DNA of 64,000 bases from Candidatus Bathyarchaeia archaeon (GCA_038882715.1 JAVZNR010000002.1:21093-85092); one strand, 5' to 3'. Counted from the first letter of the stretch, positions 3,106 through 5,735 are shown. Numbers and translations are program-made. The notes: a model not told the origin generated them from the letters alone.

Positions 3106-3234
3106 TTTAATCTAAAAAACTAAATCTAACAAAAATACCTTTTGGTTAAAAACTAAAACAATGCTGTCACATAAGCGGAGAAAAACTTTTAGATAGCATG
3201 CAGCCTTTCAATTTTTGGGTGAAACGAAGCAGAT

Positions 3235-3323
3235 GCCGGGGTGGCCGAGCGGATAAGGCGCTGGACTCGAGATCCAGTGTCCCCTCGCGGGACGCAAGGG
3301 TTCGAATCCCTTCCCCGGCGCCA
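3235..3323 (+). tRNA. tRNA-Ser (anticodon CGA), CCA encoded
   Basis: - Acceptor stem GCCGGGG/CCCCGGC.
- 3-bp D stem.
- Anticodon stem CTGGA/TCCAG with loop CTCGAGA.
- Long variable arm GTCCC..GGGAC.
- T arm AAGGG-TTCGAAT-CCCTT.
- Discriminator G followed by CCA. Confidence 0.9.
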
Positions 3324-3380
3324 AATTTGAAATGGGGCTTAAAATTGGCTCTGTTGTTAGGGTCTTGTTTTGCTGGTTTG

Positions 3381-3411
3381 GGACTGTCCCGGGACGGTCC
3401 CAGGACTGTCC
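3381..3411. repeat. three 9-bp near-palindromic sites GGAC(T/G)GTCC spaced 11 bp apart
   Basis: GGACTGTCC at 3381-3389, GGACGGTCC at 3392-3400 and GGACTGTCC at 3403-3411, read directly from the sequence. Confidence 0.7.
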
Positions 3412-3725
3412 TATCCGGCCTATTAGGAGGTTTTCGAGGTATTGGTTTATGCCCATCTCCGCCTCTCGTGCTTTAGCCTTCAGCAGCTCGTAAACCTCTT
3501 TCTTCAGGGTTAAACCGACCATGCCGGGCTTAGGCATAGAAGTATTCACCTCTTAACGTTTTAAAATTAGGCGTTTTGGCCTATAAAAAGACTGCATCTG
3601 AAAGGTTCAGATTTTCTGGTCTTGCCGATTGATGAGGAGATGGCATAGCCCGAATAAAGGAAAACGCATATAACGTGCTCAAAATTTTTAACTTCTCCGT
3701 TTTGGTGGTTTAACTAAACGTCAGC

Positions 3726-4151
3726 TTAGGCTTTCTTTTTTCTTTTCGCTTCCAGGGCTTTCTGCATTTTCTCGCATCGTTCATACCATAATTTTTCATA
3801 CTCCCTTTGGGATACAACCCTATTTTTAAGGTCAGCTATGGTGCGTATTCCCTCATTCTTACACCATTCGACACAGATCCTGTAGGCGTCCCAGTCCAGC
3901 TCTTCATCCTCCCAGTAGACTGGAACCTCTGAAAAACCGTGTAGGAAGGCTGCGAAAGCCCTTGTGTGTCCATCAACAAAGATAACATCATCTCCAAGCC
4001 TCTTAACTGGTATAGGCTCCATCGCCGTAGGGTTATTAGCGTCAAATGTCTTCATAACTTCAGATAGCTTTTCAGAGCAGATGTAAAGCTGGCTTGGCTG
4101 AATTTCGCTTAACTTCATCATGAACACTTTATTTGCCACATCAAACGCCAC
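3726..4151 (-). CDS. ParB/Srx-like domain protein (element cargo)
   Basis: PIPVKRLGDDVIFVDGHTRAFAAF resembles the ParB-like DGHHR core; 141 aa. Confidence 0.55.
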   Translation of the reverse strand: MAFDVANKVFMMKLSEIQPSQLYICSEKLSEVMKTFDANNPTAMEPIPVKRLGDDVIFVDGHTRAFAAFLHGFSEVPVYWEDEELDWDAYRICVEWCKNEGIRTIADLKNRVVSQREYEKLWYERCEKMQKALEAKRKKKA

Positions 4152-4607
4152 ACATTATATCATCGAGTTTTATTGGCAGACGGACATATGTATTTTTTCT
4201 CAACTGAGAAAGTTAAACAATGTTTAAGGTTTTTATGGATCTGAGTTCTCTTTATCCCATCATGTGTTTAGTTTTTTCATTAAGGTTCATGGAGGGTTCG
4301 CTGCATCTGATTCTTTTAGCGGCGCGTATGAAAGGTTTAGGCTGGAAAGTACATGTGAAATTTCGGTCTGAACTGTTCAAGACTCTTTGTTCTTTTCAAA
4401 CATATAAGGTTCTGTTTGAGCCAATATCTTAAGGTGTCCGGTTTGTGGTGGGGATATTAGGGGTAAGCTTTTGGGGGGTGGAGTTTTAGGTTTTATAGGG
4501 TTCGAGTGTGAGGAGTGCGGGGCTAAGTTCAACCTTTATGAGAGTTCAAGGTCGAAGTTCACTATTCCCAAAGCAAAAGGCTAACTTAAGCGTGGGGGAC
4601 GGGTTTA

Positions 4608-4835
4608 GTGGGTTTGGAGGCTGAGGTTGAGAGCAAACTCTATCATTATATTCTTAGCGTTCTGGAGAAGAGGGGCTTCACTATTGATGGTGTGAGGTTT
4701 GATGAGCCTAAGACCCAGTTTCCTGTTAATGGTCGTAAAGCTGATTTAGTAGTTCTTCTGGCTGGGAGTAAACCTCTTTTAGTTATTGAGTGTGACGGAG
4801 AGTATGAAGCAGTAAGCTCTCAACGCCAATTTTAG
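4608..4835 (+). pseudogene. truncated PD-(D/E)xK nuclease-like fragment
   Basis: GRKADLVVLLAGSKPLLVIECD looks like a D...E-x-K core. The ORF stops after 75 aa with no further domain. Confidence 0.4.
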
Positions 4836-4887
4836 CATGAGAGGTACTGCTAAAATTGATACCCCCTATACCTTTTCCGCATATTCG

Positions 4888-5735
4888 TTACGAAGTCTTA
4901 CAGGTTTGTAGATTTGCCTTCTCTCTAAGCCCCCTGAGGTAAGCGGCATATCTGGGATAATAGGTTACCGCTTGTTTTAGCAGGTTCATGTAGTGCTTAG
5001 CGCAGACCTTAATGGGCGTCCTGCCCTGGATAAAGTCGGCCACGCTCTCAGGTATCTCCAGCTCCACCATCTTATCAAACGCAAATTTCCGTAGATATTT
5101 TAATTGGATTATGCCCCTTGCACCACTCTTCTCGCCAATTTTCTTTGCGGTTTCATATGAGATTGATCGCTTAATATTGTCAAGCAGTCTCTTAGTATAC
5201 TCTGTTATGAAGGCTGCATAAGTGTTCTTATTCCCCCTTAGCATCCTGAACTGAGCGACGTAGAAGCCATCATGAGTCTCAAGCCTAACGCCCCCACCAT
5301 TATAGAGCTTTAGGAACTCAGTAGCCTCAATAACCCCTTAAGCCACTGTCGAGCATAAGGTTAAAGAGAGTTTCGTAGACGCCTTTATCCCTAAGCGCCC
5401 TTAATGATTCAATAATCTCTCCCTCGCTTGGAACCCTAACATTAACCCAACAGACACCTTAGCAGGCTCTTACGCATCAAGGTTAGATAGAAGGAGTCAT
5501 AACCCTTAACTTCAAGGAAACTGAAAAGGTTCCTAAGAGCATTAACGAGGTTCTTCCTCTGCCCCATAAACATCTTAGAAACATCGCTGGGAGAACCTAT
5601 AGGCTGCCTAAGGAACCGATCCAAATAACTAACCATCGTTTGAATATAGTCCTCCGTAACGCCCTTAGCCCTAAACCAAACAAGAAACTCGCCCCTAACA
5701 CCGTTATAATCAATCGCTTGCAGACTCGAGATCCA
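4888..5735 (-). pseudogene. tyrosine-recombinase integrase, int(C) part, frameshifted
   Basis: Three frames carry consecutive integrase-like segments:
- WISSLQAIDYNGVRGEFLVWFRAKGVTEDYIQTMVSYLDRFL...
- VNVRVPSEGEIIESLRALRDKGVYETLFNLMLDSGLR
- VIEATEFLKLYNGGGVRLETHDGF...YLRKFAFDKM...FIQGRTPIKVCAKHY

Frame changes fall near 5445-5465 and 5333-5345. Confidence 0.75.

Follow-up and report, generated by a model that had tools for sequence, protein, structure and literature searches.

A probable remnant of a mobile element with a split SSV-type integrase at tRNA-Ser(CGA) in a hot-spring Bathyarchaeia species

Two parts of one integrase gene

The stretch of DNA analysed here, 64,000 nucleotides from a Candidatus Bathyarchaeia archaeon (GCA_038882715.1, JAVZNR010000002.1:21093-85092; called the window below, with positions counted from its first letter), contains a tRNA-Ser(CGA) gene that is overlapped by the N-terminal part of an integrase gene, int(N). 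The C-terminal part, int(C), is found on the same (minus) strand at the opposite end of the putative element, and the two rejoin in frame across a short direct repeat read as an attachment site (att). The initial annotation, made from the sequence alone, had described the locus as an old, immobilised remnant with an SSV-type integrase split at the tRNA gene. This description is borne out by the identity of the joined protein, which is of the PF16795/SSV1 type, and by homologues that span the junction. The positions of the features are collected in Table 1.

The tRNA-Ser(CGA) gene is the single tRNA found by ARAGORN in the window, and an Rfam scan of positions 2800-6000 gave nothing besides it. 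The repeat, GACTCGAGATCCA, corresponds to tRNA positions 30-42, which take in the whole 7-nt anticodon loop with the last 2 nt of the stem on its 5' side and 4 nt on its 3' side. As had been annotated, it is present in direct orientation at two places. These are the only two copies in the 64 kb, also when one mismatch is allowed, and the window holds no second tRNA-Ser 3' half. The chance expectation is 0.09, and none of 100 shuffled sequences contained two or more. The DNA to the right of 5735 is identical to the tRNA 3' half at 9 of 47 positions, and so bears no resemblance to it.

Both fragments read the repeat as W-I-S-S, in the int(N) open reading frame (ORF; 3549..3208) as W92 to S95 and in the minus-strand frame entering at 5735 as the residues leading into LQAIDYNGVRGEF. 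The integrase-derived part of int(N) stops at the repeat (3264). The true start of the gene is likely to be the ATG at 3537 (MPKPG...), with GAGGTGA before it, as in homologues. Counted from this ATG, int(N) is an RHH protein of 109 aa whose Shine-Dalgarno sequence is intact and which has a promoter-like AT-rich box. The int(C) frame has no start codon of its own before the ATG at 5636, and the stop upstream of its repeat (5751-5753) lies six codons before the tryptophan, with the sense codons GENFV between, rather than three codons as first stated.

Lesions in int(C) were located by three-frame translation from 5735 to 4888 and by tblastn with the closest homologue, P0001, which aligned in three pieces in three frames, with seven residues (PKTGRGF) over 19 nt. 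These 19 nt separate '...MRKSL', which ends at 5463, from 'NVRVP...', which starts at 5443; homologues have seven residues of the form PKxxxGF here. With one base put back in each of ctgc[c]taag and ggg[t]tt, the reading becomes LPKVSVGFNVRVP, which fits the family consensus (L/I)PKxxxG(F/I)D(V/L). What had been taken for one frameshift near 5445-5465 is two separate 1-nt deletions, at ~5462 and ~5444-5445. With the extra C in the run 5334-5337, which breaks the frame between DSGLR and VIEATE, there are three 1-nt indels and not two. The repaired int(C) has zero in-frame stops, and the joined, repaired protein counts 369 aa from the ATG at 3537.

In Pfam the 369-aa protein is assigned to PF16795 ('Archaeal phage integrase') at E=3.6e-25, with 89 bits where the cutoff is 27. 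It also matches PHROG 5127 (integrase, E=3.5e-44) and the PDB entries of the SSV1 Int catalytic domain (3UXU/3VCF/4DKS, E=7e-14). A search of 50,697 phage records matched it to archaeal viruses with SSV-type integrases alone, at 26-34% identity, and a plasmid search gave t26-1p of pT26-2 (tblastn, 27% identity) and similar entries. The R...KxxR...Y signature is kept as DSGLR221, K300-Y-L-R303 and H335-Y336, with R221, K300/R303 and Y336 in invariant columns. The three motifs align to 'LESGVR', 'KYFRK' and 'QHY' of SSV1. It is this signature that marks integrases of the SSV1 type, as against R...YxxR...Y in those of the pNOB8 type (PMC8371274).

Homology across the junction, which the initial annotation had proposed as a check, is seen with uninterrupted Bathyarchaeia homologues of 346-357 aa: BLASTP aligns P0019 (residues 1-361, 39% identity) and P0010 (10-361, 43%) each in one unbroken stretch. 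At the junction GKGFEP aligns to GVGFEP/GVGFGP and IDY to ISY/IDY, and the join is colinear with the intact homologues and free of gaps. By every criterion that sequence can test, the joined protein is predicted to be an SSV-type ('suicidal') tyrosine integrase. Its structure was modelled on full-length P0019, standing in for the repaired integrase. In the AlphaFold2 model the att-coded stretch falls in a linker with pLDDT <50 between two N-terminal RHH-like helices and a confidently predicted core, whose best match in the PDB is SSV1 Int (TM 0.79-0.84). Such a disordered linker would explain how the gene tolerates tRNA sequence in either orientation. The int(N) fragment itself gives weak matches to RHH families (NikA-like, MobA) in profile scans.

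Relatives of the integrase and of the locus

A homology search returned 435 proteins, nearly all of them from Bathyarchaeia, and many proteins of this family are already labelled 'integrase' in databases. The best relative is 60% identical, and the named members of the family span 38-60%. Most of the 435 are ~290 aa long and start at or near a 'GFEP' or 'DLNP' motif. Since these motifs are the tRNA T-arm translated antisense, the ~290-aa proteins are int(C) fragments with a full att. A minority is uninterrupted at 343-369 aa (P0010, P0019, P0020, P0032 and P0075) and consists of an N-terminal RHH-like domain (PF07362, CcdA, in two of them), a variable linker with a tRNA-derived stretch, and the core.

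The tRNA targets of these relatives differ and include Arg(CCT), Leu(TAA) and Lys(TTT). At locus L091 (5675-6784) full-length P0020 holds within its ORF a tRNA-Leu(TAA)-like 3' half ending in CCA. The att is in sense orientation there, and antisense in the window and at L090. The int(C) of L090 is preceded by a 57-nt partial tRNA above the Rfam threshold, which is a canonical attR. An int(N) at tRNA-Lys in L088 shares 80% identity with the first 40 aa of the window int(N). This looks like target switching, in which one N-terminal module is paired with another att.

Several further observations concern this family. The L088 int(N) (14856-15251, minus strand) overlaps tRNA-Lys(TTT) (14969-15044), which it reads antisense, and diverges from the window protein after the first 40 residues. 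A separate 47-aa CcdA-like (RHH) gene overlaps the start of int in L091. In L093 a decayed int(N)-like RHH fragment (6960-7345) abuts a tRNA (7246-7342, minus strand) that was missed by ARAGORN and scores 45.6 bits with Rfam; at 97 nt it may contain an intron. This fragment is 2.7 kb from the ParB/Srx gene of that genome, across the tRNA. Six IMG/VR contigs of 6.7-32 kb (L097-L102) carry int(C)-type relatives (38-45% identity) 50-160 bp from the contig end, a position that would be expected if provirus predictions were bounded by a split integrase. A different element (L086, 16282-20831; GCA_038859955.1) lies a few kb from a CinA block, next to GlmS, and has an ORF with a faint Phage_integr_3 match, a small RHH gene and a Prim-Pol protein of at least 1016 aa.

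The locus itself is present at 99.5-99.96% identity in five NCBI metagenome-assembled genomes (MAGs) and in Logan contigs. The source is a hot-spring Bathyarchaeia species, in at least seven MAGs of which the locus, with its indels, is fixed. As int(C) is identical across all strains compared, the three indels and the truncated attR are older than the diversification of the species. Two further MAGs, L075 (GCA_038819915.1) and L079 (GCA_038864095.1), share the locus up to 5217, where a deletion begins (Table 1). It takes out the right 13-mer, a gene for a 414-aa protein and an SFM1-like gene, and creates a 313-aa SfsA-int(C) chimeric ORF with 2-3 nt of microhomology at the junction. L080 (GCA_038828315.1) is 99.5% identical to ~7068, where a cluster of single-nucleotide polymorphisms begins (7068-7105 onward), and 78% identical thereafter; the cause is either recombination at this point or a chimeric contig assembled from related species.

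Loci with CinA orthologues show what lies beside this tRNA in more distant genomes. In L088 (CinA 79% identical) Zn-ribbon-CinA is found beside a tRNA-Ser(CGA) with an identical anticodon arm, and downstream of the tRNA there is no integrase, a VapBC-like pair being in its place. L083 (CinA 91% identical) also has no integrase downstream of tRNA-Ser, and here the tRNA and the Zn-ribbon gene are 5.8 kb apart. At the CinA locus of L086 a tRNA is absent. L088 offers an 'empty' tRNA-Ser of the kind that the initial annotation had suggested looking for; no exact, species-level empty site was found among the CinA orthologue loci. On the other flank, tRNA-Ser is missing from the 10 kb around the orthologues of the 414-aa gene, which also vary in their upstream neighbours. 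In L004 the place to the left of this gene is taken by a P-type ATPase-like ORF (at least 901 aa), with neither tRNA nor element. This ORF has no counterpart in the window or the other loci, and the intergenic region is unalignable; the contig of L005 ends at the start of the 414-aa gene. Taken together, L088, L083 and the right-flank orthologues indicate that the element is not a conserved neighbour of tRNA-Ser.

Of these neighbours, the 5.8-kb gap in L083 looks like an insertion into a GH10 gene: fragments of it at 3950-4318 and 9447-9593 flank a cluster (3785-9615) of two URO-D-like genes and a B12-binding protein. Many short gene fragments lie beyond tRNA-Ser in the same genome. The 414-aa protein (5881-7125, plus strand) has no Pfam hit and appears to belong to an uncharacterised, widely distributed family, with full-length relatives at ~40% identity in Bathyarchaeia and in many bacterial phyla, among them Spirochaetota, Planctomycetota, Bacillota and Bacteroidota.

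By the SSV model, the part of the tRNA from 3277 onward would be derived from the element. Compared with L083, the nearest relative, the tRNA-Ser has 1 difference in the 5' 43 nt and 8 in the 3' 46 nt (Fisher p=0.03). We rejected this as proof of a foreign 3' half and take it as suggestive only, because L083 and L088 also differ from one another in the variable arm. Independent Logan contigs break within the tRNA-Ser 3' half, L072 ending at 3279 and L081 and L082 starting at 3295 and 3304. Such breaks just after the 13-mer would be expected if co-occurring relatives had the same tRNA sequence as far as ~3279 and a different one from there on, although L083 itself already has a mismatch at ~3250.

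DNA between the integrase halves

Table 1. Features of the locus, with positions in the window
Feature	Position	Strand	Description
int(N)	3208-3549	-	113 aa from GTG; RHH-like domain, linker, antisense read through the tRNA 3' half
tRNA-Ser(CGA)	3235-3323	+	ARAGORN; Rfam RF00005, 60.3 bits; intact; attL side of the putative insertion
Left 13-mer, GACTCGAGATCCA	3264-3276	+	Anticodon arm of tRNA-Ser(CGA); start of the inferred full att, 3264-3323
TRAM-domain pseudogene remnant	3585-3660	+	Heavily deleted; ..SERFRFSG..GDGIARI and stop region; boundaries approximate
ParB/Srx-fold gene	3726-4151	-	141 aa; intact; conserved chromosomal Bathyarchaeia family
Dead Zn-ribbon frame	4420-4587	+	CPVC...CEEC; no start codon; weak Zn_ribbon matches
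RM-enzyme stub	4608-4835	+	75 aa, N-terminal; weak Pfam REase_MTES_1575 match
int(C) pseudogene	4888-5722	-	Core-binding-like region and SSV-type catalytic domain; three 1-nt indels
Right 13-mer, GACTCGAGATCCA	5723-5735	+	Read as truncated attR remnant; expected 47 nt of the tRNA 3' half missing
Deleted segment	5218-7964	none	2,747 bp, identical in L075 and L079; int(C) interior to SfsA interior

Between the two halves lie a ParB/Srx-fold gene and three decayed frames. The 75-aa ORF next to int(C), annotated initially as a truncated PD-(D/E)xK protein, has 16 relatives in an exhaustive search, and the alignments cover the first ~70 residues of these proteins. Lengths of 163-1009 aa were found for most of those scanned, and their domains include HSDR_N/HSDR_N_2 (PD-(D/E)xK), N6_Mtase, Eco57I and MmeI_Mtase. 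Judged by these relatives, the ORF is the N-terminal stub of a type IIG-like restriction-modification (RM) enzyme of ~1000 aa, at least 2.8 kb of whose gene has been deleted. The Zn-ribbon frame is dead, in keeping with the missing start codon noted earlier: a stop is found at 4417-4419 and the first start codon, a TTG at 4471, is past the first Cys pair. The frame varies between strains in the length of a G-run (4473-4479), and this and the other strain indel polymorphisms, at 4277 and 4405, are all in dead spacer.

The 141-aa ORF, which had been listed as decayed ParB-like cargo, is an intact member of a conserved chromosomal Bathyarchaeia family. It has 859 homologues, the best 120 of which are 69-100% identical, and it is itself identical across strains. 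In L092, L094 and L095/L096 the gene belongs to a block of ParB/Srx, TRAM, OB (Ssb-like), TRAM and ABC transporter genes, near which there is no tRNA or integrase at these loci. Nucleotide homology between the window and L092 (10001-11383) is confined to 3652-4176, and positions 3634-3660 match the TRAM gene of L092 at 25 of 27 nt, the translated motif matching its TRAM1/TRAM2. The rest of the block (OB, TRAM and ABC transporter) is absent from the 64-kb window, and neither the window nor the fetched loci hold a second ParB/Srx copy. The ORF gave zero matches in Pfam, NCBIfam and PHROGs, and the fold was assigned by structure prediction alone. The AlphaFold2 model (pLDDT 92.4) resembles the N-domains of Noc/ParB, sulfiredoxin and SbnI (Foldseek probability 1.0, TM ~0.44), and the DGHTRA motif, of DGHxR type, is invariant. 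Having no helix-turn-helix or dimerisation domain, the protein is not a canonical partition ParB. As the ParB/Srx gene is intact and belongs to a conserved chromosomal family, the interval between the integrase halves is a mosaic and not simply decayed cargo, its ParB/Srx-TRAM part (3585-4176) being like host chromosome.

Origin of the locus and comparison with known systems

An integrase that carries attP and destroys its own gene on integration is textbook knowledge for SSV1 and for plasmids of Thermococcales. The locus is very probably what is left of a mobile element at tRNA-Ser(CGA), old and immobilised, whose SSV-type integrase was split by integration. We propose that a plasmid or virus with a suicidal tyrosine integrase inserted into tRNA-Ser(CGA) of a hot-spring Bathyarchaeia. 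Its attP would have been a copy of the tRNA 3' half inside the int ORF, in the disordered linker between the RHH-like domain and the core. With attP inside int and recombination in the anticodon arm, the gene would have been split in two, int(N) remaining beside the tRNA, which is completed by the element's 3' half, and int(C) at the far end. With neither an intact integrase nor an intact attR the element would have been trapped, and then have decayed. Large deletions would have stripped nearly all of the cargo, leaving the RM stub and the dead Zn-ribbon frame; three 1-nt indels would have broken int(C); and the host's original 3' half, which made up the distal 47 nt of attR, would have been lost together with flanking DNA in a deletion or rearrangement. 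The surviving 13 bp nearest int(C) would now abut the promoter region of the 414-aa gene. This order and nature of the deletions we infer.

SSV1 Int exchanges strands at the anticodon loop (PMC8371274), and by analogy the crossover here presumably took place in the anticodon loop too. Because attR is truncated, the att repeat is seen in part only: the 13-mer is probably the stump of an att of ~60 bp, with the truncation being secondary. Two of the possibilities raised in the initial annotation are thereby separated, as the lack of the tRNA 3' half on the right and an eroded border agree with the full form found in L090, while a true core of 13 bp does not. In the SSV model the 3' half of attL comes from the element, and that of attR is the host original, which would be dispensable after integration. 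Loss of this host 3' half is most simply a later deletion, and a deletion across the same border is still segregating. The ParB/Srx-TRAM fragment presumably came in with the element. Most simply, it would be a captured piece of Bathyarchaeia chromosome, whose redundant TRAM decayed and whose ParB/Srx did not.

Some points weigh against this account. The crossover position is taken from the biochemistry of SSV1 (PMC8371274) and not from the enzyme of the window, so it would hold by analogy. No intact copy of the element was found, and as the best integrase relative is 60% identical attP is deduced from the split gene. The ancestral right flank of tRNA-Ser is not reconstructable, since the relatives differ, which makes the deletion of attR likewise a deduction. 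Finally, an intact ParB/Srx gene of chromosomal type with a TRAM remnant is not predicted by a model in which the whole interval is cargo.

It might be supposed that an unrelated RHH ORF lies over the tRNA by chance, 2.4 kb from an unrelated integrase pseudogene, and that the 13-mer is fortuitous, since the repeat is short and its right copy lacks the rest of the tRNA half. This is effectively refuted by the shuffled sequences and the homologue alignments across the junction. The repeat is placed exactly where the homology of int(C) to intact integrases would otherwise end, and these intact homologues continue N-terminally into the tRNA-antisense GFEP stretch and an RHH domain, as int(N) does; we regard a coincidence as next to impossible. 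The two halves could also come from two related elements with a shared tRNA-Ser att, combined by the 'pseudogene reassembly' that has been published as a model for suicidal integrases (PMC7253208). The L088 int(N) at tRNA-Lys shows that N-terminal modules with different att specificities circulate, and the interval is a mosaic that includes host-like DNA. However, both halves share one reading of the tRNA-Ser(CGA) anticodon arm, identical in frame and orientation, and they give a gap-free, colinear protein, and nothing in the data requires two donors, which makes a hybrid very unlikely.

The right junction (5735/5736) could have been made by the integrase itself, if attR or attP recombined with a secondary, non-tRNA site upstream of the 414-aa gene, as proposed for the Int of pTN3 from Thermococcales; the 13 bp would then be the overlap and the partial half-sites shared with this pseudo-site. 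The stump has the anticodon loop, the site of strand exchange by SSV1 Int (PMC8371274), at its centre, and synteny left of the 414-aa gene is broken relative to L004, the closest relative with data; both would fit such an origin. Relaxed-specificity recombination is also documented for related enzymes (PMC8371274, PMC7253208). Yet the identity runs 4 nt past the loop and stops in the stem, not at the predicted cleavage position, and a pseudo-site cannot be demonstrated in the unalignable intergenic region of L004. An ordinary illegitimate deletion is observed across the same border in two MAGs, and therefore a simple deletion needs no special mechanism; we consider the involvement of the integrase unlikely. 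Somewhat less doubtful, though still not what we favour, is that positions 3550-4880 are essentially host chromosome, with ParB/Srx the species' only copy, moved between the two stumps by rearrangement. The gene is 84-88% identical to its relatives, much as the flanks are (CinA 79-93%, the 414-aa protein 76-87%). Its chromosomal neighbourhood is conserved in other genomes, its sequence is intact and does not vary between strains, and no fetched locus has a second copy. On the other hand the TRAM is reduced and the rest of the block is missing from the window, which better fits a redundant captured fragment; the RM-enzyme stub and dead Zn-ribbon in the same interval are typical element cargo; and an arrangement with host DNA between co-oriented int(N) and int(C) does not follow from any simple succession of inversions or deletions. 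Three readings that are compatible with one another go further and are possible, if improbable: the attR scar was made by the integrase; the captured ParB/Srx has been kept by selection; and, more broadly, the 435 matches appear to mark a large undescribed Bathyarchaeia clade of RHH-fused suicidal integrases, with the att in a disordered linker and readable in either orientation. If the scar were made by the integrase, suicidal integrases would be agents of chromosome rearrangement in Bathyarchaeia, as has been proposed for Thermococcales.

Taken as the remnant of an integrated element, the locus leaves the understanding of the suicidal-integrase mechanism unchanged, and is a real but ordinary dead remnant. 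It adds a clean, population-fixed example from Bathyarchaeia, a little-studied host, and suggests that SSV-type integrases fused to an RHH domain form a large clade in Bathyarchaeia, with tRNA specificities that are modular. Erosion of the remnant has proceeded mainly by large deletions, one of which is still segregating and removes two host genes. For annotation, the 113-aa 'hypothetical' protein over the tRNA and the 64-aa and 118-aa ORFs are pseudogene pieces of one gene. Suicidal integrases are known from Sulfolobales, Thermococcales, Archaeoglobales and Methanococcales/Methanosarcinales (PMC8371274, PMC7253208), with one case in Thaumarchaeota (PMC6563490). A survey of Bathyarchaeia viruses notes only 'a tyrosine integrase' (PMC10848311), and Bathyarchaeia hosts and the RHH-fused clade are undiscussed in the integrase literature searched (PMC8371274, PMC7253208).

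Among the closest known systems is SSV1/SSV2 Int of the Fuselloviridae of Sulfolobales, which belongs to the same PF16795 family, has an in-gene attP matching the 3' part of a tRNA and the R...KxxR...Y signature, and is split in the same way, with a short int(N) by the tRNA and a long int(C) on the far side of the element. The window integrase is 26-34% identical to these, has an N-terminal RHH-like domain with the att in a predicted disordered linker, and belongs to a Bathyarchaeia host; the copy is dead, with a truncated attR, and has no fusellovirus structural genes beside it. The integrases of pT26-2 and pTN3 and the TKV-type elements of Thermococcales are likewise suicidal and tRNA-targeting and occur as frameshifted int(N)/int(C) pairs (Cossu 2017; Badel 2020; reviewed in PMC8371274), and target switching by exchange of att modules is shared between pT26-2/pTN3 and the Bathyarchaeia family. 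These integrases form a distant clade, however, and the window remnant measures 2.4 kb against ~20 kb for those elements. In contrast to pTN3, the window locus shows no evidence of chromosomal inversion or of homologous-recombination activity. NitEve-E3 of Thaumarchaeota (PMC6563490) is also cryptic, with a split SSV1-like integrase and no viral hallmark genes identified; it comes from a different phylum and still encodes MCM, whereas the element of the window has lost almost everything. Also close are the uncharacterised Bathyarchaeia proteins P0019, P0010 and P0020 (full length) and P0001 and P0005 (int(C) forms), which have the same RHH-linker-core architecture as the window integrase. Their int(C) relatives keep the full tRNA 3' half, of which the window copy keeps 13 bp.

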